Shown: positions 1,118 through 51,594, counted from the stretch's first letter. The stretch is 64,000 nucleotides of DNA from Escherichia phage WG01 (NC_031928.1), one strand, 5' to 3'. The notes: generated by a model from the letters alone, not told the origin. Made by a program: numbers and translations.

Positions 1118-3100
1118 ATGTCTTTATTATCACCGGGCATTGAGCTCAAAGAAACGTCCGTACAGAGTACTGTCGTTCGTAACGCAACGGGTCGTGCAGC
1201 GCTGGTTGGTAAATTCCAGTGGGGCCCTGCTTTCCAGGTAACTCAGATTACTAATGAAGTTGAACTGGTCGACTTATTTGGAGGTCCTAATAACGAAGTT
1301 GCTGATTACTTCATGTCGGGTATGAACTTCCTCCAGTATGGTAACGACCTTCGTACTGTTCGTGTTGTTAACCGTGAATTCGCTAAAAACGCGTCTCCGG
1401 TAGCGGGTAACGTCCAAACCACTATTACTACTGCAGGTTCTAACTATGCGGTAGGCGATAAAATTAATATCAAATATAACCAGACTGTTGTTGAATCTGA
1501 AGGTCGTGTAACTTCGGTCGATACAGACGGTAAAATTCTATCAGTGTTTATTCCTACCGGCAAGATTATTTCTTATGCTCGTTCTGTTAACCAGTATCCG
1601 AACCTAGGCCCTGCGTGGACTGCTGAAGTTACTTCTGCCTCTTCCGGTGTTTCTGGTACTATTACTGTCGGTAAAATTGTAACCGATTCCGGTATTCTGT
1701 TGACTGAAGCAGAGAACAGTGAAGAAGCTATTACTTCCCTGGAGTTCCAAGCATCTCTTAAACAGTTTGGTATGCCTGGTGTGGTCGCCCTTTATCCTGG
1801 TGAAATTGGTAGTACTCTGGAAGTTGAAATTGTTTCTAAAGCGGCTTATGATGCTGGTTCTACTAAAATGTTGGATATTTATCCAAACGGTGGTACTCGT
1901 GCTTCTGTAGCTAAAGCGGTATTCAACTACGGCCCGCAAACAGATGACCAATACGCAATTATTGTTCGTCGTGATGGCGCTATCGTAGAATCTGTCGTAC
2001 TTTCTACCAAAGAAGGTGAAAAAGACGTTTACGGTAATAACATTTATCTTGACGACTATTTCGCTAAAGGTACTTCTAACTATATTTTTGCTACCTCTTT
2101 GAACTGGCCTAAAGGCTTCAGTGGTATCATTAATCTTATGGGTGGTGTATCTGCTAACGATCAGGTTACTGCGAGTGATTTGATGCAGGGTTGGGATTTG
2201 TTTGCCGACCGTGAAGCACTCCATATTAACCTTTTGATTGCTGGTGCCGTTGCCGGTGAAGGTGATGAAGTTGCTTCTACCGTCCAGAAACACGTTGTTA
2301 GTATTGCTGATGAACGTCAGGATTGCTTGGCATTTATTTCTCCTCCTAAAGGACTGTTGGTTAACGTTCCATTGACTCGTGCAGTAGATAATCTTATCGA
2401 CTGGCGTACCGGTGCAGGTACTTTCGATACCAACAACATGAACATTAGCACCACTTATGCTGCTATTGATGGTAACTATAAATATCAGTATGACAAATAT
2501 AATGACGTAAACCGTTGGGTGCCTCTGGCCGCTGATATGGCTGGTTTGTGTGCACGTACTGATGATGTTTCTCAGCCTTGGATGTCTCCGGCAGGTTATA
2601 ACCGTGGCCAGATTCTTAACGTTCTGAAATTGGCAATTGAACCGCGCCAAGCTCAACGTGACCGCATGTACCAAGAAGCTATTAACCCAGTTGTTGGTTT
2701 TGCTGGTGGCGATGGTTTCGTATTGTTTGGTGATAAGACTGCAACCAAAGTTCCATCTCCGATGGACCACATTAACGTTCGCCGTCTGTTCAACATGCTT
2801 AAGAAAAATATCGGTGATGCCTCTAAATATAAACTGTTTGAATTGAACGACAACTTCACTCGTTCAAGCTTCCGTATGGAAGTTTCTCAGTACTTAGATG
2901 GTATTAAGGCACTTGGTGGGATTTATGAAGGACGTGTGGTTTGTGATACTACAGTGAACACCCCTGCGGTTATCGACCGTAATGAGTTTATTGCTAATAT
3001 CTACGTTAAACCGGCCCGTTCTATTAACTACATCACGTTGAACTTCGTTGCAACGAGCACTGGTGCTGATTTTGATGAATTGATTGGACCTTTAGTATAA
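1118..3100 (+). CDS. 18: tail sheath protein
   Basis: 660 aa, MSLLSPGIELKETSVQ... N-terminus and length as T4 gp18; SD AAGAGGA upstream; late promoter TATAAATA at 1081. Confidence 0.95.
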   Translation: MSLLSPGIELKETSVQSTVVRNATGRAALVGKFQWGPAFQVTQITNEVELVDLFGGPNNEVADYFMSGMNFLQYGNDLRTVRVVNREFAKNASPVAGNVQTTITTAGSNYAVGDKINIKYNQTVVESEGRVTSVDTDGKILSVFIPTGKIISYARSVNQYPNLGPAWTAEVTSASSGVSGTITVGKIVTDSGILLTEAENSEEAITSLEFQASLKQFGMPGVVALYPGEIGSTLEVEIVSKAAYDAGSTKMLDIYPNGGTRASVAKAVFNYGPQTDDQYAIIVRRDGAIVESVVLSTKEGEKDVYGNNIYLDDYFAKGTSNYIFATSLNWPKGFSGIINLMGGVSANDQVTASDLMQGWDLFADREALHINLLIAGAVAGEGDEVASTVQKHVVSIADERQDCLAFISPPKGLLVNVPLTRAVDNLIDWRTGAGTFDTNNMNISTTYAAIDGNYKYQYDKYNDVNRWVPLAADMAGLCARTDDVSQPWMSPAGYNRGQILNVLKLAIEPRQAQRDRMYQEAINPVVGFAGGDGFVLFGDKTATKVPSPMDHINVRRLFNMLKKNIGDASKYKLFELNDNFTRSSFRMEVSQYLDGIKALGGIYEGRVVCDTTVNTPAVIDRNEFIANIYVKPARSINYITLNFVATSTGADFDELIGPLV

Positions 3101-3225
3101 TCTATTATCCCAGGCTGTAATATAAAGAACCTAAAACCATTATACCATGAGTTTGGTTACAGCGTACATCACGTAGAATTGCGCCTGGGATTGATTATTC
3201 TTTAGGAATATGATTTATCAACTGT

Positions 3226-25344: not shown

Positions 25345-27468
25345 CTACATTTTGAATTTATTTGATAAAGAAGAGATATCCAAAGACGCTGCAAGGATTT
25401 CCATAGCCTCGTTGCTTTCAGAAACAGATTCATTAACCAAGAATTGACTGAACCCATCCATCAGGCGAACTTCACCAGTTTCCATCAAATGGTCACCATC
25501 GTAAACAGATTCGCTGAGCTCTGAAGGAGGTGTTACGGTAGCTTCCATAAGGTATTTGTGAGATACTCTATCATTCATGGCAAAAGCCGCTACTTTATCA
25601 ACCTTCAACAATAATCCACGCGGAAGGATAATTTCTGCTTCTTCGGCATATTCTGTAAGGTCACCAGGAGCGATAACTTTAACTGCTTCAGCACCTCGAA
25701 TAACCATACCAATTTCAGCAATTCTATCTGCAGGACCTTCAGGTGCAATTGGATTACCAAACTCGTCTTCTTCCCATTCTACCTCTTCGTCATCGACTTC
25801 ACCTACATCAGATGAACTACCACTAGCCAATTTAAACAACTCATCAGCGGAGGATAAAGAACCTTCACCGCCAACAAAAACGGCTTGGTTGTCGAGGGCC
25901 ATATAATTTTTACCAAATTCACCAAAGATGTTAGGTTTTAGTGAGGCTGACACAAAGTTCTTAAAGTAAAATGTTTTGTTATCGATATTATGGCGCAGAA
26001 TTTTGTATGGCAAATCCTGACCACGATACAAAATAGTACCCTTAGGAAGTTTAATACCCTTAGTAAATGCCGAGTCTAAATCCTTAATCAATTTAATAGC
26101 CGTTGTATTGTTTTCGGATTCAGGTTTACCTAAAAGGAATAAGTTCATAGGAGCATATTCAGCCGCGCAATATTCAATAATAGCATTGCTTTCGTCTTTG
26201 GTTAGGTCCTTAGGTTTAATGAGCTCGCCTGAATAAGCATATGCATCACTAATAGAATCGTTAACCAGTTTATAAACGGCTTCCATAGCGAAAGCAATTC
26301 TAGATGCTTTCTCTGAAGGGGAACCCTTAAAACGGGTACTCAGGTTATTAACAATTTTCTTAATAATATCCAGACTATTGGTTGTATTGATTTGCGAAAG
26401 GCCACTTAAAAGTCTATCGACTTCTGTATTAAAAAATGCCATATTATTAGAGTAAATTTCAAACCCTTGTTTATCTCTATTAGCATAATTTAGTTTAAAT
26501 TTACTATCAGTCATTAAAGCGTGTGTGAGAGCAATAGTGTATCTAAAGTTGGCAAGGTCCTCGCTCTTAGATTTAAACTGAGAAGCCTGACGCATTTTAG
26601 TAATGGCACCTTTTTTAAAGTTCTGACTAATCTGTTCAATACCTTCGTTCTCAGGGCCTTCAGCCGTGTGAACCGGTACAGAAGCTTCAAACTCGTTATA
26701 AACCTGCAATTCTTTAGGGGACAAAGTTTCAGGCTCAGCAGTAGAATACTGCGCCGCCGCTGCCATACGACGCGAAATCTTAGTACGAGTAATGACAGCC
26801 TTATCAGTACGTTTCTCTTCAACTTGTGCAATAGATGCCGCTACGGCTTCGACCTTACTTACAGCCTGGCCGGTTTTCTTAGAAACATACACTTCGCCAA
26901 CTTTAGACTCAACTTTAGTATAAAGATCGGCATTAATTTCAGGCATACCCTTGATATCTTCAATATTAGCACCACGACGTACTAAAAGAACGTAGGTATG
27001 TTTTCCGCTGAATTGGAACATGTCGTCAACAACTTTAAACTTACCACCGGTACGAGCCATAGCCAAGCGAGCTAATACGCGCTGAACGGTAGGACCTTTA
27101 CCTTTCATTTTCTTGGTAGGGAACCGGAAAAGAACTGCATCCATTTTAAGTTTGTTTACTTGTTCGTATACAGTATCAAAAATGGTATTCAGCGTACCAA
27201 GTGGGTCAGAACCTAACCCACCTTTCAACTCGGCTGGGCTACCCTTAGCAGACAAACTCATCAAAATAACATGAACATATTTGTCGCCCGGCTTAACCAT
27301 TTTAATAGCGTCTCCTTGAGACGCATAAGATACCATACGAGCAACCAGATTATCATTACCTGGTGCTTGGATAGAGAAAATCTGTGGAATACCGGAACCC
27401 GGTTTAAGATTTGTTACTGGATAGTTTTTAGCGGAATCACTATCAAAAACCTCATTTAAATTTTCCAT
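25345..27468 (-). CDS. alt: Alt-like ADP-ribosyltransferase, paralog 1
   Basis: 707 aa; conserved N-terminal ~230 aa shared with the two neighbours; C-terminal ART-like motifs YRGQ, FVSASL, EAEIILPRG. Confidence 0.85.
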   Translation of the reverse strand: MENLNEVFDSDSAKNYPVTNLKPGSGIPQIFSIQAPGNDNLVARMVSYASQGDAIKMVKPGDKYVHVILMSLSAKGSPAELKGGLGSDPLGTLNTIFDTVYEQVNKLKMDAVLFRFPTKKMKGKGPTVQRVLARLAMARTGGKFKVVDDMFQFSGKHTYVLLVRRGANIEDIKGMPEINADLYTKVESKVGEVYVSKKTGQAVSKVEAVAASIAQVEEKRTDKAVITRTKISRRMAAAAQYSTAEPETLSPKELQVYNEFEASVPVHTAEGPENEGIEQISQNFKKGAITKMRQASQFKSKSEDLANFRYTIALTHALMTDSKFKLNYANRDKQGFEIYSNNMAFFNTEVDRLLSGLSQINTTNSLDIIKKIVNNLSTRFKGSPSEKASRIAFAMEAVYKLVNDSISDAYAYSGELIKPKDLTKDESNAIIEYCAAEYAPMNLFLLGKPESENNTTAIKLIKDLDSAFTKGIKLPKGTILYRGQDLPYKILRHNIDNKTFYFKNFVSASLKPNIFGEFGKNYMALDNQAVFVGGEGSLSSADELFKLASGSSSDVGEVDDEEVEWEEDEFGNPIAPEGPADRIAEIGMVIRGAEAVKVIAPGDLTEYAEEAEIILPRGLLLKVDKVAAFAMNDRVSHKYLMEATVTPPSELSESVYDGDHLMETGEVRLMDGFSQFLVNESVSESNEAMEILAASLDISSLSNKFKM

Positions 27469-27471
27469 TAT

Positions 27472-29553
27472 TTACCCTTGGATGAATTTTTCTGGGATGT
27501 CATAGAGGTCTATGCATGAAGCCAAAAGAGGCAGTACATCAAACCGTGTAGATTTAACAAATGAATCAAAAGATAAGGGGCTTTCGGAAGTATCGAAGTC
27601 ATCTTGATATACGACCAACTCGCCGGTTTCCATTAGTACATCACCATCATATACCACAGATTCTTGAAGCTCATCTGTTGTCATAACTTCAGCTTGAATG
27701 AGTTTTGTATTACTAGATGTTGTTCCATCATTATTAGAAGCATCTGTTATTTTATTAACTTTGACCATTAATCCACGCGGTAGAATAACTTCAGCTTCAG
27801 TTGCTATTCCGAGATTTCCTGGATATACGACATTAACTTTATGGGCCCCATCAATAGCCCATCCTATTTGAACTTTAACATAATCAGGATTTTCTTTATA
27901 TGCTCTTATTTCATTAGGATTAATAGTTATTCCTTCTTCATTTTTATCAACTGTCAATTCGTTGCGAACTTCCGGTTCTAAAAGACCAATACCAGCGTGC
28001 GTAACACCAAAACGTCCGAAAATTATAGGAGTTAAAGAAGTAGATACAAAATTTCTAAAATAAAACACTTTATTTTTAACTAGTGCTTCGTATATAGGAG
28101 CAGTCATACTCTGGGCACGATAAACTGTAATGCCTTCCGGTATACGGTCACCATTTTCAAAAGCTGAATCTAAATTATTTACAGCGGATTCGATATCTTT
28201 TTCGCTCATAACCTCATAGTTCTGAGGATTATAACGTCCTAAAAGAAGATTATTTATGTCTGTATATCCTGAACCACAATATTCTCTGATACCACGCTTT
28301 TGTGATGGAGTATATTTAGAACCTTCACGAGCAATAGTAATATCAACCATAATACCACCACCCACACCAGCAAAACTATACACGCGTTTTTTAATGAACT
28401 TAGTCTTGGCTGCTTTCCACTTGGCCTCTGTCAATTCGTTCCAAAGGTCATCAGGTTGGCCTTTACGAGTTCTGTTATGGATAGCCAGCCACTCGCCTTT
28501 ATATTCTTCGAAAATGGTATTAATAGCAGAGGCATATTTTTCTAGAGCTTTAACAGATGTCAAAGGTTCGTTTTTTATTGCTGTAAGAATTTTCTCTTTA
28601 ATTTTCTCTTGGATTTCACCAATACCGTGAAGTGGGAACAATTTATAGTCGTAATGCAATTCTTCAGCAGTGCCTTCAGCTACTATATTAGCAACCTTAT
28701 TTTTAGCCGCAGGAGAATTGTTATTAGTAACCATTTCCTGAGCCTCAGGGATTAATGGAACTGTTGCCGGTTTATTAAAATCCGCTGCAGTAGCTTCATA
28801 TTTCTTAAACAATTCACTTTCATTACGATAAGATTCCAATGATTGGCTTGCTGCAATGGCGCGCCTAGAAATCTTAGTCTTGGTTATAACCATTTTATCA
28901 GTGCGACGTTCTTCAACCTTAGCAATACTACCGGCGATAGCAGTTTCTTTAGTAACCTGCACGCCTTCTTTTTTAGAAATATAAACTTCACCGACATCAG
29001 AATCTACCTTAGTATACAATTCAGCATTAATTCCAGGCATACCTTTGATATCTTCTATATCAGCTTGTTTACGAACTACCAGGATGTAAGTATGTTTACC
29101 GGTAAATTGGTACATAGCCGGAACTACTTTAAAACGTCCACCTGTTTTCTGTGCTACCAAACGTTGGATAATCCGTTGAACGATAGGGCCTTGACCTTTC
29201 ATTTTCTTAGTAGGGAAACGGAACATCACGGCATCCATACGAAGCTTTTTAACCTGTTCGAATACTACGTCGAAAATGGTATTAATAGCATCAATAGGAG
29301 TAGGGCCTAAGCCACCTTTAAGTTCTGCTGGAGTACCTTTAGCTGAAAGGCTCATAAGGATAACGTGGGCATATTTATCACCCATCTTAACCTGTTTAAT
29401 AGCATCGCCTTCAGAAGCATAGGATACCATACGTGCTACTAACTGAGACTCCGCGTCTCCAATCTTCCAAATCTGAGGTACTTTAAGTTTTGGGTTCAAG
29501 TTCACAACAGGCAGTGTACCTTCGGACTCGAACACTTCATTTAATTGGGTCAT
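27472..29553 (-). CDS. alt: Alt-like ADP-ribosyltransferase, paralog 2
   Basis: 693 aa; same architecture; motifs YRAQ, FVSTSL, EAEVILPRG. Confidence 0.85.
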   Translation of the reverse strand: MTQLNEVFESEGTLPVVNLNPKLKVPQIWKIGDAESQLVARMVSYASEGDAIKQVKMGDKYAHVILMSLSAKGTPAELKGGLGPTPIDAINTIFDVVFEQVKKLRMDAVMFRFPTKKMKGQGPIVQRIIQRLVAQKTGGRFKVVPAMYQFTGKHTYILVVRKQADIEDIKGMPGINAELYTKVDSDVGEVYISKKEGVQVTKETAIAGSIAKVEERRTDKMVITKTKISRRAIAASQSLESYRNESELFKKYEATAADFNKPATVPLIPEAQEMVTNNNSPAAKNKVANIVAEGTAEELHYDYKLFPLHGIGEIQEKIKEKILTAIKNEPLTSVKALEKYASAINTIFEEYKGEWLAIHNRTRKGQPDDLWNELTEAKWKAAKTKFIKKRVYSFAGVGGGIMVDITIAREGSKYTPSQKRGIREYCGSGYTDINNLLLGRYNPQNYEVMSEKDIESAVNNLDSAFENGDRIPEGITVYRAQSMTAPIYEALVKNKVFYFRNFVSTSLTPIIFGRFGVTHAGIGLLEPEVRNELTVDKNEEGITINPNEIRAYKENPDYVKVQIGWAIDGAHKVNVVYPGNLGIATEAEVILPRGLMVKVNKITDASNNDGTTSSNTKLIQAEVMTTDELQESVVYDGDVLMETGELVVYQDDFDTSESPLSFDSFVKSTRFDVLPLLASCIDLYDIPEKFIQG

Positions 29554-29561
29554 AATCTATC

Positions 29562-31457
29562 CTATTTAAATAAATTTGCTAATTTTTCCATAGAATCTTC
29601 ATACATAATTCTATCATAATTTCCAAACGAGAATCCGGTGCTATATGAATTTTCCTCTGTGATTTGCTCGGTAGCTACAACTTCACATTCCACTAAAACA
29701 TATTTACCAATTGAACCCATAGGTCCCTTGGAAGCACCGTATACTTTATTAATCTTAAGCATAACCCCACGAGGAAGAATTACTTCGGTTTCTGTAGACC
29801 AATTAGCCAAGTCACCGGGCACAATAACCTTAATTTTATCAGCACCTTTAATAATTAACCCTAGCTTAATGGTATCTCTAGCACTTCCGGTCGCACTTTT
29901 AATGGTGTCTTCAAGATTACTATCTATATCGCTAGAAAGAGCTTCAGGGTCTAAGTTGGATTGAGCATGACCCATTTCACCGAAAATATTAGGAGCCAAT
30001 GAAGTTGATGCAAAAATAGGAAGATACATCACCTTATGTTTTATAGAATTCAAAGCCATTTCGGTAGGCATTATCTGAGAACGATACACTATGGTTCCTT
30101 TAGGAAGTTTTGTACCATTTTCAAATGTAGAATCCAACTCACCAATCATTTTTATCATTTCATCGGTGGTATCTGTTTTACCTAGCAAAAAGTTGTTTAT
30201 ATGGTTGTAGCCGCCACGAGTATACTTTTTGACTGCCTCTTCTTGAGGTTTGGATAAATTAGGATTATCAGATATCTTAAACAACGGTTGGATAGATTTT
30301 GTATAAACTGCTACTAAGGATTTTATTACTTCCTTGATTTTAGATTCTCTAGCCCAAGTACCTTTAACTGAATCATCTAAAAGGGCCGCAGCGACTAGTC
30401 TAAGAATGTCTACATGAGATTTACCTGATTTTAAAGCCTCTATGACACTATTAGATTTATCTAAAGAATCTGATGCCTCTAAAGCAAACTTTATATCAGC
30501 AATTAGTTTAAGTTTGCGCTCGTCTACTTCAAATGATGGATTAACACCGTTAAAAATATAATCCAAATATTCTGCCATTTCTTTAGAGGCGTCTTTTAAT
30601 ATTTTATTACTGGCTAAAGCTATTTGGCTTTCTTTAGAATCTTCAGAAGAATGAACGGAACTAGTAGCAGAATAATCTGCATAAGCTTTTTTGTGCTCTG
30701 CCGAAAATTTACTCAATCCTGTAGGCTCGGCGGTAGAATATAACGCATTTATAGCGGCCCGTTTAGAAACCTTAGTCTTGGTTATAACCATTTTATCAGA
30801 ACGTGATTTTTCTATTTCGTCTATAGACTTAGCTATAGCTTCTAATTTGGTAACATCTTCGCCTGTTTTCTTTGAAACATACACATCACCGACTTCAGAT
30901 TCGACTTTAGTATACAATTCCGGATTAATATTAGGAATACCGTTTATTGATTCTATATTTTTATTTTTACGATAGATAAAAACATATGAATGTTTGCCTG
31001 TATATTGATACAAGGCATCAAGGACCTTGAATTGCCCACCTGCTCTAGTAGCTATTAATTTGGCTAGAACTCGTTGTACAGCTTTTTCCTGACCTTTCAT
31101 TTTCTTAGTAGGAAAACGGAACATAACGGCATCCATACGGAGCTTTTTAACTTGTTCATAAACCGTATCAAATATAGAACGAATAGCGGAAATGGGGTTA
31201 CTACCTAAACCACCTTTGAGTTCTGCCGGGGCCCCTTTAGATGATAGGCTCATTAAAATAATATGAACGTATTTGTCACCCGGTTTAACTTGGCGGATTG
31301 TATCACCTTCAGAAGTATATGAAACCATGCGTGCAACAAGGTTCTCATTACCTTCAGCCTTTATATTCCAAATCTGTGGTACTTTAAGTTTAGGGTTTAA
31401 ATTGACAGCTGATAAATCTATAGCGCCGTCAAATACCTCATTCAATTGTTCGGACAT
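29562..31457 (-). CDS. alt: Alt-like ADP-ribosyltransferase, paralog 3
   Basis: 631 aa; motifs YRSQ, FASTSL, ETEVILPRG; SD AAGAGGAA. Confidence 0.85.
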   Translation of the reverse strand: MSEQLNEVFDGAIDLSAVNLNPKLKVPQIWNIKAEGNENLVARMVSYTSEGDTIRQVKPGDKYVHIILMSLSSKGAPAELKGGLGSNPISAIRSIFDTVYEQVKKLRMDAVMFRFPTKKMKGQEKAVQRVLAKLIATRAGGQFKVLDALYQYTGKHSYVFIYRKNKNIESINGIPNINPELYTKVESEVGDVYVSKKTGEDVTKLEAIAKSIDEIEKSRSDKMVITKTKVSKRAAINALYSTAEPTGLSKFSAEHKKAYADYSATSSVHSSEDSKESQIALASNKILKDASKEMAEYLDYIFNGVNPSFEVDERKLKLIADIKFALEASDSLDKSNSVIEALKSGKSHVDILRLVAAALLDDSVKGTWARESKIKEVIKSLVAVYTKSIQPLFKISDNPNLSKPQEEAVKKYTRGGYNHINNFLLGKTDTTDEMIKMIGELDSTFENGTKLPKGTIVYRSQIMPTEMALNSIKHKVMYLPIFASTSLAPNIFGEMGHAQSNLDPEALSSDIDSNLEDTIKSATGSARDTIKLGLIIKGADKIKVIVPGDLANWSTETEVILPRGVMLKINKVYGASKGPMGSIGKYVLVECEVVATEQITEENSYSTGFSFGNYDRIMYEDSMEKLANLFK

Positions 31458-31691: not shown

Positions 31692-33215
31692 TTATAGTCC
31701 AGTTTGAGACCAATCACCAAATACATCTTCAAATGTATCAGCTTCTGTTTTATCGAAACGCCAACCTTTAATGATTGGAAGGAAAATACCTACAGTATCG
31801 GTACGTCCTTTAGAATGAACCCAACCATTACATTCACAGTCAGCAATACGTCCAATCAACTTACCTTCACGAGCTTGTTTCATAAGAAGTTCACGGTCTA
31901 AATCAGGACGGTCTTCCAATGGAATCAATACTTTTTTACCTGATTTATCTTTCTTATGGGTGGTATCTTTAAAGCCTGAACCACAGTCGCTTGTAATTCG
32001 ACGACAACGTGATACCAACTCGACACCACCTAGCTTGTTAGGGTCCTTCGAGTGTTCATAATAACCCACCACTTCTAAAGCAATATCGATTACTTCTTTG
32101 AACTTGATAAGATTCTTAGAACGACGGTTTTCCCAGTAGGAGTCCATGTTCTTAAGGATAATGCCTTCCAGACCTTGGTCGACATATTTCTTATAAACGA
32201 CTTTAGCTTCTTCAAGATTATTAACCCACTGGTTTTCGATAGCTTCAACACGCGTTGTACCATGCGATACGACATTATGAGCAACCATAAGTTCTAAGGC
32301 TGTAAAGCGTACATCATACTTATCGCCTTTAATTTTACCTTCGGAATATACGACATCCAATGGGACATAATCCCATGCCTGTAATACCATACCAGCGGCT
32401 TCAGTAGCCGAAATAGTTCCTTGAAGAGCTTTGTTAGCCAAGCCATTTGACGTAGAACGATCGGCGACAGTTTGGAATTCCTTAGCCTTACTTAATTCAG
32501 GAAGTTCCTCGTCAAACATACTAAACAAATCATTAGATGCTTTAGGTTCTACCTTAGGAGTATGGTAAACTAATTCGCCATCAATCATAACGCCATTAGG
32601 ATGGCGTTGTCGAGCTTCTTCGGTCATGGCCATTAATTCAGCCGCCAAAAGATTAAGCCCTTGATATTCGTTACCACCACGAGTAAGGAATGTCACACCA
32701 TCGTTACGAACTTCGGCAAAACAACGAGCACCATCAGCTTTTAATTGAGCAAACGCTGGCCATTTAATATTTTTCTTAATCAAAGCTTCATCATAAGAAC
32801 TCGCCAACATCTGCGGTTGTTCAGGGATTAAACCTTTCCAAACCTTGTTAGCAATAGAAATCGATGCACCACATTCAAGGTCGCGCATCATTACACGACG
32901 TAATACCTCGGCATCCGGGGCCTTAGCATCAGCAATGATTTGAGCCAGTTCTTCAATAGCCGCATTACCCGTAATCTTACGTGTGGCTAATGTGAATTCA
33001 GCGAAATCAAGAAGGTCTTCAAGAGTAATCATACCAAAGGATTGAGATGTAAATCCAGGTTCTGGCCACTTTTTAATACCGTAGTTCAGACGACGGGTAT
33101 AAGCCATACGATAAACACGTTTCAGAAGCTCATTGTTCTTTTCACGAGCAATAATGGCTTCTTTAGCTTTAGTAGAATCAATAGCAGCAATTTCGTTTAA
33201 AATATCTAAAATCAT
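31692..33215 (-). CDS. 30: ATP-dependent DNA ligase
   Basis: Start moved to ATG 33215 (MILDILNEIA..., SD GAGGTGA) matching recalled T4 gp30 N-terminus; KADGAR adenylation motif. Confidence 0.92.
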   Translation of the reverse strand: MILDILNEIAAIDSTKAKEAIIAREKNNELLKRVYRMAYTRRLNYGIKKWPEPGFTSQSFGMITLEDLLDFAEFTLATRKITGNAAIEELAQIIADAKAPDAEVLRRVMMRDLECGASISIANKVWKGLIPEQPQMLASSYDEALIKKNIKWPAFAQLKADGARCFAEVRNDGVTFLTRGGNEYQGLNLLAAELMAMTEEARQRHPNGVMIDGELVYHTPKVEPKASNDLFSMFDEELPELSKAKEFQTVADRSTSNGLANKALQGTISATEAAGMVLQAWDYVPLDVVYSEGKIKGDKYDVRFTALELMVAHNVVSHGTTRVEAIENQWVNNLEEAKVVYKKYVDQGLEGIILKNMDSYWENRRSKNLIKFKEVIDIALEVVGYYEHSKDPNKLGGVELVSRCRRITSDCGSGFKDTTHKKDKSGKKVLIPLEDRPDLDRELLMKQAREGKLIGRIADCECNGWVHSKGRTDTVGIFLPIIKGWRFDKTEADTFEDVFGDWSQTGL

Positions 33216-33225
33216 AATCACCTCA

Positions 33226-33504
33226 TTAGTCATGGATTCTATTATAAGCCACATCAGCCAAAAGCAAGTCTAATCGCTTATGATAAGAGAACACAAATCT
33301 CATTCGCCCATCAGATTTGAACTTGGACATAAAGTGGACATAAATGAATCCCTGTTCGACGCATTCGCGCCAAACAGGATGGTCTTTAGCCGGATTTACA
33401 TCAAATGAGTAATCATGATTCACATGACGAATAAACTGGTTTACATGACCATAATCCATTGTAGTGGTAGGACCATAGTCTGAAATTGTATGAACTACAA
33501 ACAT
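33226..33504 (-). CDS. hypothetical protein (92 aa), 30.1 position
   Basis: Internal ATG 33504, one nt after the upstream stop. Confidence 0.45.
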   Translation of the reverse strand: MFVVHTISDYGPTTTMDYGHVNQFIRHVNHDYSFDVNPAKDHPVWRECVEQGFIYVHFMSKFKSDGRMRFVFSYHKRLDLLLADVAYNRIHD

Positions 33505-34144: not shown

Positions 34145-34599
34145 AATAAATCTCTCAATTTGTTTAGGATGTCGATAAACTCTTTTTCAGTTAGTATTGT
34201 ATCACATTCTGTAAGGTGGCTCGCCATCGAATGCTTTAAAACTTTGCCCTTTGTAGCTTGTAATGCGTCGCGGAATCCTTTGTTTTGGAGCGCTGCTTCA
34301 AAATAAGCATTTGTATACAACTCTTTCCATGATGCAGAGTATCTTGAAAAGGGAATTCCAAGCCAGAAAAGCGTCCCACGGTCCGCAGCTCTTGCATAAG
34401 CTCTTCCAGTTTGTTGTGCGGCCAGACCGGACATCCCAAATATACGTTTTTGTTGTTCATGATTTCTCACCTTACACCCTTGGAGGAATCCTTCGAGCCC
34501 TCCAAATTGGATACCATCCATAACGAAAGGCCATTTAGCAAAGTTACTTAATGCACACGATGGCCACGGAAAATTACTTCTGATTTCTAACTCAGACAT
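34141..34599 (-). CDS. NADAR (YbiA-like, DUF1768) domain protein
   Basis: Start at ATG 34599 overlapping the upstream stop (ATGTCTGA); 152 aa; LSNFAKWPF.MDGIQFGGLEGFLQGCKV resembles the E. coli YbiA N-terminal signature. Confidence 0.6.
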   Translation of the reverse strand: MSELEIRSNFPWPSCALSNFAKWPFVMDGIQFGGLEGFLQGCKVRNHEQQKRIFGMSGLAAQQTGRAYARAADRGTLFWLGIPFSRYSASWKELYTNAYFEAALQNKGFRDALQATKGKVLKHSMASHLTECDTILTEKEFIDILNKLRDLL

Positions 34600-34804
34600 C
34601 TTTGACACTGATAATCTTGGTTGCATACCACATGCCATGGTCTGGCAATCTTTCTTTAATTGACTGCCCGCGATATGTTTTTCGCATAACAACAGTTTTA
34701 ATAGCATCTTCATCGCAAGCATATGGCGGTGATAAATCAATAACACGATAAGTCACTTCAACCAGTTCCAAGCCAAACAGCTTTTTAAATAATTTCTTAA
34801 TCAT
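34592..34804 (-). CDS. hypothetical protein (70 aa), tandem paralog A
   Basis: SD AAGGAG; paralogous to the next ORF (shared ...KKL..KL.G.E.VEVTYRV.DLSP...SIK.RLP..G.W....IISVKD). Confidence 0.6.
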   Translation of the reverse strand: MIKKLFKKLFGLELVEVTYRVIDLSPPYACDEDAIKTVVMRKTYRGQSIKERLPDHGMWYATKIISVKDV

Positions 34805-34813
34805 GAAGACTCC

Positions 34814-35026
34814 TTAAATATCTTTGACACTGATAATCTCTACATCAGCCCAATGACCATAACCAGGTAGACGGTCTTTAATAGATAATCCGCCGTCAGA
34901 TTTCAGCATTTTAATTGTTTTAGTATATGGTTCATCTTGTGGATGCACAGGAGATAAATCAGTTACACGATAAGTCACTTCGACCATTTCCGTACCTAAT
35001 AATTTCTGAATCAATTTCTTAAACAT
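34814..35026 (-). CDS. hypothetical protein (70 aa), tandem paralog B
   Basis: SD GAGGA; paralog of 34592-34804. Confidence 0.6.
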   Translation of the reverse strand: MFKKLIQKLLGTEMVEVTYRVTDLSPVHPQDEPYTKTIKMLKSDGGLSIKDRLPGYGHWADVEIISVKDI

Positions 35027-35027
35027 A

Positions 35028-35222
35028 TTATCCTCGCTTTAAACATTTGATTACAGACAGTTCACCGCCCATGCGAACGTCTTCAGTTCCATCGACCCAT
35101 AAGACGGTGTAGGCTTCTTTAATAGTAACATTACCTAATTTAAAAGCAGGTAGAACCTTTGAAATCATTCCAGGAATACCTACGCCTTTTAACTGGACTG
35201 TTTGCGATAAAAATAGTTGCAT
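35028..35222 (-). CDS. hypothetical protein (64 aa)
   Basis: TAATG coupled to upstream ORF; SD GAGG. Confidence 0.4.
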   Translation of the reverse strand: MQLFLSQTVQLKGVGIPGMISKVLPAFKLGNVTIKEAYTVLWVDGTEDVRMGGELSVIKCLKRG

Positions 35223-35509
35223 TAGAACCTCATCTGAAAGCCGTGTGATTTAACATTACCACCATAGATGTCAGAGGTATTGACTTCACGGGCGACACTT
35301 GGGTCGATATTGATATCATGGTTTAGCTTAGTGATTGCTAAGGTATCACGACCATTAACAGTACGGAATTCTACTGGACATACAACATCAGCATAGGCCT
35401 TAATAGATTCACGAGTAGGTTGTTTGTCGGCAGGAACGTCTTTACCTGCTTTAGAGAAAACAACTTCACAGAAATTTTTACGAGTATCGAAATAAGTGGT
35501 CATAAACAT
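35222..35509 (-). CDS. hypothetical protein (95 aa)
   Basis: Internal ATG 35509 with SD GAGGAAA; ORF-track extension overlaps a GGAGGC-UUCG-GCCUCC hairpin. Confidence 0.45.
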   Translation of the reverse strand: MFMTTYFDTRKNFCEVVFSKAGKDVPADKQPTRESIKAYADVVCPVEFRTVNGRDTLAITKLNHDINIDPSVAREVNTSDIYGGNVKSHGFQMRF

Positions 35510-35524
35510 AATATTTTCCTCAAA

Positions 35525-35540
35525 GGAGGCCGAAGCCTCC
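35525..35540 (-). promoter_or_regulatory. intercistronic UUCG-tetraloop hairpin
   Basis: Minus-strand GGAGGC-UUCG-GCCUCC between two coupled small ORFs. Confidence 0.5.
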
Positions 35541-35550
35541 ATTTTTAAGA

Positions 35551-35916
35551 TTAGATGTCGAATTCGTTCAGAACTACATCAAAGATTGCTTCCAGGTGTT
35601 CAGGTTTAGCTCGGTTGCTCAGGATGTGACGAATCCAAGTTTTAACCAGAAGCTTACGATTAACACCGTTCCAGCAAGGATGGGTACCTAAATCACGTTG
35701 ACGGAAATCATCATCTAAAGCGATTTTAAAAGTAGAACCTTCCATTGTGATTGAAACCGTAATACCATTTTCAAAGCGCATATAAACGTAGTTAGGAGTC
35801 ATGCACTGTTCGATTTCGCACACTGTACCGTTTTCGTGTTTCCACAGGCAAATAACTTCGGAAGAACCAGCGATACCGTTAGAAACATATTTACGTTCGA
35901 AGTTGATGTAGTTCAT
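35551..35916 (-). CDS. hypothetical protein (121 aa)
   Basis: Internal ATG 35916 preceded by CTGGAGAATAAAA and a promoter cassette repeated upstream of the next gene. Confidence 0.5.
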   Translation of the reverse strand: MNYINFERKYVSNGIAGSSEVICLWKHENGTVCEIEQCMTPNYVYMRFENGITVSITMEGSTFKIALDDDFRQRDLGTHPCWNGVNRKLLVKTWIRHILSNRAKPEHLEAIFDVVLNEFDI

Positions 35917-35949
35917 TTTTATTCTCCAGTTTGTTTTCGTATTATTTGG

Positions 35950-35990
35950 TACAGGTCTATAATAACACAACCTGTACCAAAGTAAAACAT
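35950..35990 (-). promoter_or_regulatory. early promoter cassette (copy G)
   Basis: -10 TATTATAGACC then leader GTACCAAATAATACGAAAACAAACTGGAGAATAAAA. Confidence 0.45.
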
Positions 35991-36323
35991 TTATTTCACG
36001 ACATTCCAATTTTTCATATCAAGTTTACCAACTTTTTTCATCTGAGCAATCAGACGTTCAGCGCGTGTACGGGCATTAACATAATAGAATTCACCATTTT
36101 TGTTTTCTTCAATACGACCAGTAATTACAGTTTTCAGTTCATAAATCCAACCTGTAAAGAAGTTGTGAAGCTCGATGGTGAATGTAAAATCAGTACCCAT
36201 ACCTTCAGTTGTTTCAACTTCGATGATATCACCTTCAACTGCAGTCAGGACCCACATGGTTTCTTGATATTCACCGTTGAAACATTTAGCTTTAACAGAT
36301 GCATTCAGATTTACAGTTTTCAT
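35991..36323 (-). CDS. hypothetical protein (110 aa)
   Basis: ATG 36323 preceded by CTGGAGAATAAA and a promoter cassette. Confidence 0.5.
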   Translation of the reverse strand: MKTVNLNASVKAKCFNGEYQETMWVLTAVEGDIIEVETTEGMGTDFTFTIELHNFFTGWIYELKTVITGRIEENKNGEFYYVNARTRAERLIAQMKKVGKLDMKNWNVVK

Positions 36324-36354
36324 TTTATTCTCCAGTTTGTTTTAGTATTATTTG

Positions 36355-36395
36355 GTACATGTCTATAGTATCACGCCTACCGGAGATGTATACCC
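36355..36395 (-). promoter_or_regulatory. early promoter cassette (copy F)
   Basis: Extended -10 TGATACTATAGAC then same leader as copy G. Confidence 0.45.
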
Positions 36396-36421
36396 TTTTT
36401 TTTAAAGATTTAGAAACAAAA

Positions 36422-36443
36422 ATGGGACTCCGAAGAGTCCCAT
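36422..36443 (-). terminator. terminator after the 53-aa ORF
   Basis: ATGGGACTC-UUCG-GAGTCCCAT on minus strand followed by T-run. Confidence 0.6.
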
Positions 36444-36446
36444 AAC

Positions 36447-36608
36447 TTATGCCTGAGGCTTACCAAAGCAAGCAGCATCTGCACGCAATACTGCACGAGC
36501 ACGAGCTTGAAGCTTATCAACTACCTGATTGATACGCTTGTTGGACGCACGCTTGTAACCAGCGCGTTTAGAGGTACCGTCAACTACTTTAACTTCTTTC
36601 TTAGCCAT
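36447..36608 (-). CDS. small basic protein (53 aa)
   Basis: Not in ORF track; hand-translated MAKKEVKVVDGTSKRAGYKRASNKRINQVVDKLQARARAVLRADAACFGKPQA; UUCG terminator hairpin immediately after the stop. Confidence 0.45.
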   Translation of the reverse strand: MAKKEVKVVDGTSKRAGYKRASNKRINQVVDKLQARARAVLRADAACFGKPQA

Positions 36609-48798: not shown

Positions 48799-50484
<1,686 letters not shown>

Positions 50485-50499
50485 TTTATTCTCCTTAGT

Positions 50500-50540
50500 T
50501 GATAAGGCTATAGTATCACTACCATAGCCTGGTGTAAACT
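50500..50540 (-). promoter_or_regulatory. early promoter cassette (copy B)
   Basis: -35 GTTTAC, extended -10 TGATACTATAG, leader CCTTATCAACTAAGGAGAATAAA. Confidence 0.55.
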
Positions 50541-50767
50541 TATTTTTGAATTAGGCCCATATAAAATTTAGCGTCTTCCGGGTGCATACCGTCACAATAC
50601 TCGTCAGCCATAAAGCGGGTAAGGTCTTCAAGAGGACCTTGGACTTCAATTTGCATACTACAGAATTGAGTATCTTTAATATGGGTCATAACTAAAGAAG
50701 GATAACGATTACGGATAACTTCGTAAGTGTATTCAAAATCAACGATATCAATATTAACCTTAGCCAT
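50540..50767 (-). CDS. hypothetical protein (75 aa)
   Basis: Internal ATG 50767 with SD GAGGAAAA and own promoter cassette. Confidence 0.5.
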
Positions 50768-50789
50768 TTTATTTTCCTCACTCATTAGT

Positions 50790-50830
50790 TGATAGGTCTA
50801 TAGTATCATGTTTAAAGGCGTTGTAAACAT
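50790..50830 (-). promoter_or_regulatory. early promoter cassette (copy C)
   Basis: -35 GTTTAC, -10 TGATACTATAGACC, leader TATCAACTAATGAGTGAGGAAAATAAA. Confidence 0.55.
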
Positions 50831-51091
50831 TTATTTTTGAATTTTATCAAGCCATTTACCAAGTTTAATCATTTCTTTGGTAGCTTTTTCCATACTTCTA
50901 AATTTAACCAGTAAAGGTTGGGCATCAACACCCATAACTAAGGTGGTTACAAGACTATGTTCACCTACAAGCCATAATGAATAAGTTTGGATATCGAGCC
51001 CGTAATTTCGGTCTTTATGAACTCGTACACCCATCACTTCAAATTTCTCACTGGCTTTTTCTACTGCATCCAGGAAATCATCTTTAGTCAT
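50831..51091 (-). CDS. hypothetical protein (86 aa)
   Basis: ATG 51091 one nt after upstream stop (TAATATG). Confidence 0.45.
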   Translation of the reverse strand: MTKDDFLDAVEKASEKFEVMGVRVHKDRNYGLDIQTYSLWLVGEHSLVTTLVMGVDAQPLLVKFRSMEKATKEMIKLGKWLDKIQK

Positions 51092-51092
51092 A

Positions 51093-51482
51093 TTAGGCCT
51101 TAAAAGTTTTTTGCAAAAGTTCAATGATTTGGTCAACGTTCTGTTCGGTGACAATGCAATGGATTTGAGTCACACCGGCCTTAGCAATAGGCTCATCGAT
51201 TTCTTTATCTTCCACAACATATTCACAGAAGCAATAGAACTCATCTTCATGCAACTCAAAATAATTTGGCACCAACCCAAATGCATTATAAATCTCGCCA
51301 TTTGCACATTCGATTTCAGTCACAAATTTGTCGCCATCCATAGTCAACATATCCTTTACTTCAAACCAACCTCCGTTGTCTTGGATAAGGTCGACCATGC
51401 TTTTATTATTTTCATATTCGTCCATTTCAATAAAGTCTTTAATGCATTCAGGACGAAGTTCATAAGTTTTACCGATTTCCAT
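51093..51482 (-). CDS. hypothetical protein (129 aa)
   Basis: ATG 51482 with SD GAGGAAA and own promoter cassette. Confidence 0.5.
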   Translation of the reverse strand: MEIGKTYELRPECIKDFIEMDEYENNKSMVDLIQDNGGWFEVKDMLTMDGDKFVTEIECANGEIYNAFGLVPNYFELHEDEFYCFCEYVVEDKEIDEPIAKAGVTQIHCIVTEQNVDQIIELLQKTFKA

Positions 51483-51504
51483 TTTATTTCCTCATCTATT
51501 AGTT

Positions 51505-51545
51505 GATAGGTCTATAGTATCACGTTTAAAGGCGTTGTAAACCAT
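51505..51545 (-). promoter_or_regulatory. early promoter cassette (copy D)
   Basis: Nearly identical to copy C. Confidence 0.55.
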
Positions 51546-51594
51546 TAAATGCCAAAAAGGGAAGACCGAAGTCTTCCCATTATAAATCAATAAC

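Follow-up and report, generated by a model that had tools for sequence, protein, structure and literature searches.

Why should two small neighbouring genes that encode unrelated proteins be preceded by nearly identical regulatory DNA? This question is raised by genes 30.8 and 30.7 of Escherichia phage WG01 (NC_031928.1), each of which follows a common element that runs from the -10 box of a predicted early promoter to the start codon. The genes lie in the 64,000 nt stretch of this genome analysed here, termed the window. A sequence-only reading had pointed to two small adjacent genes, encoding 110 and 121 amino acids (aa), behind the same element of roughly 50 nt, and had taken the arrangement for a modular duplication or insertion of units that each consist of a promoter and an open reading frame (ORF). 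Both ORFs were located (Table 1). Sequence comparison identifies the window as that of a JS98-like, T4-type coliphage of the genus Dhakavirus. A 1.4 kb stretch at the locus is 98.9% identical to the Dhakaviruses IME540 and FB and 96.6% identical to JS98, in which the homologous genes are annotated as 30.6, 30.7, 30.8 and 30.9 and are flanked by DNA ligase (gene 30) and rIII. All features of the locus are on the minus strand.

The evidence set out below makes it likely, in our judgement, that 30.8 and 30.7 are two ancient early units, that their leaders have been homogenised by recombination, and that their regulatory cassettes act as recombination joints rather than as the ends of a duplicated unit. 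These cassettes are of the kind known from T4-type phages as PeSLs. A PeSL combines an A/T-rich tract, an early promoter, a Shine-Dalgarno (SD) sequence and an ATG with a terminator stem-loop upstream, and PeSLs are enriched in hyperplastic regions (Arbiol et al., 2010, PMC2839356; Comeau et al., 2014, PMC4122927).

A repeat search of the window recovered one two-copy family at the locus, 52 nt in length with 92% identity and a spacing of 406 nt. The 44 nt pattern from which the common element had originally been recognized matches the window exactly twice (35918-35961 and 36324-36367) and has 0 matches in 100 dinucleotide-preserving shuffles. Thus, the claim that the same element of about 50 nt stands before each gene holds, and chance does not account for it. 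The two copies differ by 2 substitutions and by one extra A ahead of the 30.7 ATG. The repeat is limited to the interval between the -10 box and the ATG, and the parts of the two promoters that extend from -35 to -10 are about 0.6 identical.

Three layers can be distinguished within the repeat. The first, TA(C/T)TAT-AGAC, is shared with five or more further early cassettes in the window. The second is a 26 nt middle specific to this pair, TGTACCAAATAATACNAAAACAAACT, which can be written TGTACCAAATAATAC(G/T)AAAACAAACT and which occurs in the window only at these two sites when 3 or fewer mismatches are allowed (0 expected). The third, GGAGAATAAAA, is located directly ahead of the ATG. At least seven other early cassettes on the minus strand of the window share the arrangement GTTTAC-N17/18-TA(C/G)TAT-AGAC, and these carry a shorter leader type, CCTATCAACTAATGAGGAG. 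The sequence-only reading was therefore also right to describe the element as an early promoter cassette in variant form whose leader differs. A dispersed repeat or mobile element family was ruled out, as there are two copies only in the window. Among the matches listed from 956 matching phage records, no complete genome has the cassette element at more than two places.

A tandem duplication of a promoter-plus-ORF unit, or the insertion of a second such unit, followed by divergence of the ORFs beyond recognition, would produce the layout of alternating cassettes and genes, the regular spacing of 406 nt and two ORFs of similar size. Furthermore, an AlphaFold2 single-sequence model of gp30.7 (predicted local distance difference test score of 54.8) is too poor to exclude a shared fold. 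However, BLASTP gave no alignment between gp30.7 and gp30.8, profile-profile comparison with hhalign gave a probability of 0.1%, and the two proteins belong to distinct Pfam (PF06919 and PF06019) and PHROG families. Because the proteins are unrelated, the repeat does not represent a duplicated promoter-plus-gene unit. Both genes are present in the same order in Tequatro-, Mosig-, Dhaka-, Gapriver- and Jiaodavirus, which indicates that both are old and that neither unit was recently inserted. A duplication would also be expected to leave coding regions better preserved than regulatory DNA, and the reverse is found, with regulatory DNA 92-98% identical while the coding sequences are fully diverged. 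Finally, T4 has both genes, yet its two leaders share only the SD sequence and ATG (identity of 0.34 in the multiple alignment and 0.65 by pairwise global alignment), so the high leader identity seen here is a derived, lineage-specific state. We consider a duplication of the unit highly improbable. What survives of the sequence-only reading is its modularity: the upstream elements align and are related, the proteins are not, and cassettes and ORFs assort independently among related phages, as when T2 lacks 30.8 and ime09 carries a swapped 30.8.

To trace the leaders across relatives, the regions upstream of 30.8 and 30.7 were aligned from ten phages representing five genera. Identity between the two leaders of the same genome is 0.65 in T4 and ime09, 0.70 in Gaprivervirus VR26, 0.76-0.83 in Mosigvirus, 0.79 in Klebsiella phage Mineola, 0.81-0.87 in VR5 and ESCO10, 0.93 in the window and 0.98 in JS98. 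When all leaders are clustered, the P30.7 and P30.8 leaders of Dhakavirus pair up first and group with orthologues only afterwards, and the leader pair of Mineola shares a lineage-specific leader of its own, CCACCCAAAC. The clustering of paralogous leaders in Dhakavirus points to concerted evolution by gene conversion between neighbouring cassettes. Compared with Mosigvirus, the P30.8 leader of the window is 0.89 identical to its orthologues and the P30.7 leader 0.80. This difference suggests P30.8 as the probable donor, whose leader most likely overwrote that of P30.7 in a Dhakavirus ancestor. The near-identity of the leaders is thus best read as the homogenisation of two old, adjoining cassettes.

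Selection alone might instead preserve the common leader, in which case it would be a cis-acting RNA element that places both genes under shared post-transcriptional control (S1-dependent translation, RegB or another RNA-binding protein), with no recombination involved. Consistent with this explanation, GGAGAATAAAA is near-invariant before both genes in five genera and agrees with a consensus of known function, the two leaders are A-rich and lack structure, and no deletion of 30.8 was seen in the Dhakavirus genomes examined. In contrast, the 26 nt middle varies between genera, such that T4, Mosig-, Gapriver- and Jiaodavirus each differ, and the two copies within one genome share lineage-specific states, which is the signature of conversion and not of a conserved motif. 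A different leader also precedes other early genes of the window. Selection as the sole cause is unlikely in our estimation, and we favour homogenisation by recombination.

The promoters of the two cassettes are those expected of early PeSL units. Both P30.8 and P30.7 fit the PeSL promoter consensus TTTACW-N17-TAYWAT of T4 and PST (PMC4122927) as well as the early -10 motif TGTG(A/G)TA(C/T)(A/T)AT (bioRxiv 2024.04.04.588121). Transcription from P30.8 is predicted to begin near G36358. P30.7, which can alternatively be read as TTTACT-N16-TATTAT, is conserved in Tequatro-, Mosig-, Dhaka- and Gaprivervirus. The T4 orthologues of 30.7 and 30.8 are classed as early at both the RNA and the protein level (PMC9697503 supplement), and the T4 interval from 128355 to 131540 contains no listed middle promoter. 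The intrinsic terminator that follows 30.9 (36422-36443 with its T-run) is located 28 nt upstream of the P30.8 -35 box and forms the stem-loop part of the 30.8 cassette; its RNA fold has a free energy of -15.7 kcal/mol (z = -3.6). Thus, the 30.8 cassette has all parts of a PeSL, the upstream terminator included.

T4 early promoters are promoters of the UP/-35/TGn/-10 type (Hinton, 2010, PMC2988021), and the two promoters resemble them in a GTTTAC-like -35 box, a 17 nt spacer, a TA(C/T)(A/T)AT box preceded by TGTG and an A-rich tract upstream. Unlike the T4 promoters, P30.8 (GTATAC) and P30.7 (TTTTAC) each have one mismatch from GTTTAC, and the start sites given here are predicted. The same promoter features are reportedly also covered by Miller et al. 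in 2003. Each cassette has three functional layers, namely a putative sigma70-dependent T4-type early promoter, a short, unstructured, A-rich 5′ leader, and GGAGAATAAAA before the ATG as an SD sequence that is probably also a strong site for the RegB/S1 endonuclease.

Neighbouring PeSLs have been shown to recombine in the interval from the -10 box to the ATG, and to border indels and exchanged ORFs (PMC2839356, PMC4122927). At the 30.7/30.8 locus, likewise, deletions and replacements in related phages have their junctions inside the cassettes. Phage T2 lacks 30.8 (8 records, all T2 or SV76) by a deletion of about 400 bp, and its T4-type P30.8 promoter and leader run directly into the 30.7 ORF, with the crossover inside GGAGAATAAAA. 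Among the Tequatrovirus matches listed that cover the whole query, all others have about 400 bp more at this place than T2. The T2 state is a deletion rather than an ancestral absence because 30.8 is present in all other lineages.

An exchange of alleles is exhibited by the Tequatrovirus ime09. On either side of 30.8 this phage has 98-100% identity to T4, and its 30.8 ORF, with 48% identity to T4 and 85% to Mosigvirus, is a Mosigvirus-type allele. The switch points are the 17-mers GGAGAATAAAATGAAAA and GTTTACTTTGGTACAGG, which are invariant in 4/4 aligned phages except for one base in the window's GTTTACTTTGGTACAGG. Specifically, the swapped ORF is bounded by the SD sequence and ATG on one side and, on the other, by the -35 box plus the left arm of an inverted repeat that surrounds the P30.7 -10 box. 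The 30.8 ORF of the window is of T4 type (DNA identity of 76% to T4 versus 49% to Mosigvirus), and the 5′ end of its 30.7 is Mosigvirus-like (95% versus 85% to T4). Judged by these identities, the window is itself a mosaic of the same kind as ime09.

In Mineola (MH333064.1), two extra genes (213 and 212) occupy the slot between the 30.8 homologue and the true 30.7. The gene CPT_Mineola_214, which is noted as 'T4 gp30.7 like', is in fact the 30.8 homologue (45% identity to the window gp30.8, E = 2e-31; locus 1154-3121). Across these phages gp30.8 is dimorphic, and its two classes, which are 43-46% identical to each other, do not follow the genus boundaries: T4 and Dhakavirus have a form of 110 aa, whereas the form in Mosigvirus, Gaprivervirus, ime09 and Mineola has 122 aa. 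The gp30.7 protein is 92-98% identical across four genera. The conserved cassette sequences probably serve as the patches of homology at which the 30.8 ORF is deleted or exchanged between phages.

Recombination might also have taken the specific form known from RB49 and phi1, in which crossovers between the -10 box and the ATG of neighbouring PeSLs give rise to encapsidated mini-circles (PMC2839356). The 30.8 unit would then be a cassette that enters and leaves as a mini-circle, and the repeat would be its integration footprint. The repeat spans precisely the interval from the -10 box to the ATG, and both the loss of 30.8 in T2 and its swap in ime09 have cassette junctions, as this model predicts. 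However, 30.8 is found at this position in all five genera examined, which would make the integration ancient while the leader identity is recent, and the element has only two copies per genome. A mini-circle origin of the repeat is very unlikely, and the homogenisation of two resident cassettes is the explanation carried forward here.

The third layer of the cassette has the features of an endonuclease site. Strong cleavage by RegB/S1 follows the consensus GG*AGRAYARAA, and RegB requires an unpaired GGA (Uzan and Miller, 2010, PMC3014915). In both copies GGAGAATAAAA is an exact match to this consensus and doubles as the SD sequence, with GGAG located 6-7 nt ahead of the ATG, so that SD and start codon form the 3′ end of the element. 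The window contains the 11-mer 3 times, where 0.04 occurrences are expected, and in all three cases it is the SD sequence of a gene behind an early promoter. Counted from the predicted starts, both leaders are about 35 nt long, A-rich and unstructured, with a minimum free energy of 0 on RNA folding, which leaves the GGA unpaired. A leader structure that sequesters the SD sequence was ruled out by the same value. Such an unstructured leader would suit both efficient initiation and the need of RegB for an unpaired GGA. Since regB is annotated in JS98 and the consensus is matched in full, GGAGAATAAAA is probably a strong RegB/S1 site in this phage as well, at which the mRNA would be shut off after a few minutes.

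The 11-mer GGAGAATAAAA is invariant before both genes in five genera, except for a T-to-C change at P30.8 of SA79RD and the P30.7 SD sequence of VR5 and ESCO10. In these two deeper-branching Dhakaviruses (locus positions 1179-1263 and 1211-1295), the P30.7 leader has the shared 5′ part and is followed by the SD sequence AAAGGATAATAAAATG, which lacks GGAG. The homogenised tract is therefore shorter in VR5 and ESCO10, and their 30.7 would escape RegB cleavage. The likeness to the RegB/S1 sites of T4, as Uzan and Miller relay them from Durand et al. (2006), extends to the consensus, the intergenic position in an early mRNA, the unpaired state, the A-rich tail and the presence of regB in the lineage. 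The sites at this locus differ in being predicted from a consensus match, and in the absence of GGAG before 30.7 of VR5 and ESCO10.

Cassettes and genes alternate a second time downstream of gene 32, in the frd.1-frd.3 region (50245-51555, minus strand), where three small ORFs each follow an early promoter (at 51542, 50828 and 50539). Over 66 nt, the first two of these cassettes share 88% identity, and the one at 50539 contains the third GGAGAATAAAA of the window.

The sequence-only reading had also placed an 8 bp inverted repeat around the -10 box of one copy. An inverted repeat is present at the 30.7 copy, but its arms are 12 nt long (35970-35981 and 35945-35956), 100% complementary and 13 nt apart; on reading the sequence, no such palindrome is found at the 30.8 copy. 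Because P30.7 transcripts start within the right arm, the palindrome can pair only in RNA that is read through from P30.8. A 96 nt read-through RNA folds with -22.6 kcal/mol (z = -3.7). Tequatro-, Mosig-, Dhaka- and Gaprivervirus all have the same 8 nt core, GGTACAGG/CCTGTACC, with the exception of one C-to-T change in the right arm of phage SA79RD, and this variant, CCTGTATC, would retain a G-U pair in RNA. No covariation was seen in the palindrome arms of the aligned phages. A role of the hairpin as an intrinsic terminator was ruled out, as it has no U-run and is not called by the terminator scan. The hairpin may instead stabilise the 30.8 mRNA at its 3′ end, act as a partial barrier to transcription or provide a protein binding site.

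These observations invite the explanation that the palindrome is the functional core of the region, either as the operator of a dimeric DNA-binding protein or as an RNA hairpin by which the 30.8 transcript is ended or stabilised, and that the leaders are alike only as a consequence of the preservation of its right arm. The core is preserved in four genera, SA79RD apart, while the loop and leader vary, and the Dhakavirus leader extends the stem to 12 bp. The low z score of the read-through RNA and the G-U pair that the SA79RD variant would keep also agree with this explanation, and the annotators of SA79RD labelled the hairpin a terminator. Against it, the stem is not followed by a U-run and is not called by the scan, its arms show no covariation, and the right-arm sequence is retained in the P30.8 copy and in Mineola P30.7 although both are without the left arm. 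Moreover, identity between the two copies reaches about 30 nt past the arm. It is rather improbable that the palindrome is the functional core. Still more doubtful is the notion that GGTACAGG...CCTGTACC and the homogenised leader together form a dedicated element, perhaps bound by a phage-encoded protein or acting as an RNA switch, that couples 30.8 and 30.7 expression or targets recombination to the slot. If this were true, the dimorphic 30.8 would be a deliberately exchangeable module, for example an arms-race gene.

Several points weigh against the homogenisation of PeSL-kind cassettes, which we nevertheless prefer. About 10 genomes were sampled, and the tree is a simple clustering by the unweighted pair group method with arithmetic mean on sequences of about 45 nt. 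Despite the good repeat, no Dhakavirus without 30.8, as would result from the 406 bp deletion, is present among the phage-collection matches listed, and IMG/VR yielded 0 deletion junctions versus 5 normal Dhakavirus loci; recombination must therefore be rare or the deletion product counter-selected. The 30.7 cassette fits the PeSL definition except for its stem-loop, which straddles the -10 box and so overlaps the promoter, and which has no U-run, unlike the canonical PeSL terminator. The SD sequence AAAGGATAATAAAATG of VR5 and ESCO10 indicates that the RegB site is not obligatory for 30.7. All functional steps of the model draw on consensus matches and on the T4 literature, and selection for a common leader could also keep two copies alike.

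The locus is like published PeSLs in that the same composite precedes small non-essential ORFs in a hyperplastic region, and in that deletions and ORF replacements with cassette junctions separate close relatives. It is unlike them in that the specific leader is confined to two copies and is not a dispersed family. The main texts of both PeSL papers (PMC2839356, PMC4122927) do not refer to the 30.7/30.8 locus, and what it adds is leader homogenisation, that is, concerted evolution of two adjoining cassettes. The internal-protein (IP) loci of T-even phages, in the form in which the PeSL papers report them from Repoila et al. (1994), likewise have a variable ORF slot, conserved regulatory flanks and shuffled alleles. 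The 110 aa and 122 aa classes of 30.8 behave in an IP-locus-like manner, although at another locus and, compared with the IP loci as reported there, with two classes only. Deletions between short direct repeats in T4, as cited in PMC2839356 from Singer et al. (1982) and Mosig et al. (1998), are similar to the loss of 30.8 in T2, a clean deletion between repeats of 11-15 nt. Relative to those cases as cited, the repeat here is a functional SD/RegB motif and not a chance homology, and in the window it has grown to 44-52 nt. We did not find the degree of leader homogenisation, or a joint that coincides with a RegB site, described; the class of mechanism is known.

The locus therefore reveals no new mechanism, but provides a clear added case of a known kind of recombination-prone regulatory cassette. 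It is a compact natural illustration of how small accessory genes are shuffled in T4-type phages, wherein the sequences for expression (promoter, SD sequence and RegB site) double as recombination joints. Four outcomes are represented in sequenced isolates: deletion in T2, a cross-genus allele swap in ime09, insertion of extra genes in Mineola and leader homogenisation in Dhakavirus. With its 406 bp unit between repeats of 44-52 nt, the locus offers a simple system in which PeSL-type recombination can be measured. In addition, it marks out gp30.8 as an early protein that evolves fast and has two classes of allele, beside the highly conserved gp30.7.

Table 1. Features of the 30.9-30.7 region, in the order of transcription, with window coordinates
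Feature	Position	Strand	Evidence
Gene 30.9, 53 aa, upstream neighbour	36447..36608	-	ORF list; JS98 annotation at homologous position; phrog_1427 match
Intrinsic terminator after 30.9: stem ATGGGACTC/GAGTCCCAT, UUCG loop, then T-run	36413..36443	-	Terminator scan, inverted repeat, fold
A/T-rich tract AATCTTTAAAAAAAAGG (A8 tract) upstream of the P30.8 -35, UP element-like (putative role)	36394..36410	-	Sequence reading
Early promoter P30.8: -35 GTATAC (36388-36393), 17 nt spacer, -10 TACTAT (36365-36370), GTGA before -10	36365..36393	-	Custom scan, ortholog alignment
Repeat copy 1: -10 region, ~35 nt unstructured leader, GGAGAATAAAA at 36323-36333	36323..36374	-	Repeat and pattern searches, fold
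Gene 30.8, 110 aa, PF06019 (Phage_30_8), T4-type allele	35991..36323	-	ORF, Pfam, PHROGs
Early promoter P30.7: -35 TTTTAC (35982-35987), 17 nt spacer, -10 TATTAT (35959-35964), TGTGT before -10	35959..35987	-	Scans
12 nt perfect inverted repeat TTTGGTACAGGT ... ACCTGTACCAAA enclosing the P30.7 -10	35945..35981	-	Inverted-repeat search
Repeat copy 2: -10 region, ~36 nt unstructured leader, GGAGAATAAAA at 35917-35927	35917..35968	-	Repeat and pattern searches, fold
Gene 30.7, 121 aa (MNYINF...), PF06919 (Phage_T4_Gp30_7)	35551..35916	-	ORF, Pfam, PHROGs
GC-rich UUCG hairpin GGAGGCTTCGGCCTCC after 30.7, followed directly by the SD sequence of 30.6, without promoter	35525..35540	-	Scan and fold, -14.8 kcal/mol, z = -2.6

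With regard to function, gp30.7 and gp30.8 fall into Pfam and PHROG families of unknown function only. Neither protein has a match in NCBIfam or PADLOC, profile searches against the PDB gave nothing below E = 0.3, and a literature search found nothing relevant. In GenBank records, the orthologues of 30.7, 30.8 and 30.9 often carry implausible product names, such as head vertex protein, baseplate hub subunit, 1,4-alpha-glucan branching enzyme or ABC transporter ATP-binding protein, and rIII is named thymidine kinase. These names look like propagated or frame-shifted annotation errors.

Further observations concern the neighbouring genes. The longest ORF at the position of 30.6 encodes 106 aa from an ATG at 35542 (35222-35542, minus strand), a start that lies inside the hairpin 3′ of 30.7. 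The start annotated in JS98 gives a product of 95 aa, with its ATG at 35509 and GAGG in front, and this 95 aa form is likely the gene. At the position of 30.4, two adjoining paralogues of 70 aa (34592-34804 and 34814-35026, minus strand) are 78% identical over their first 77 nt. JS98 has a single 30.4 at the homologous position, which indicates that the pair arose by tandem duplication of a small early gene in the window phage. Adjoining the DNA ligase gene (31692-33254), three tandem paralogous genes (25345-31457, minus strand) encode proteins of 707, 693 and 631 aa and form DNA repeats that are 61-88% identical at a spacing of about 1.9-2.2 kb. Each of the three proteins contains PF03496, an ADP-ribosyltransferase domain, and on this basis they are Alt-like.

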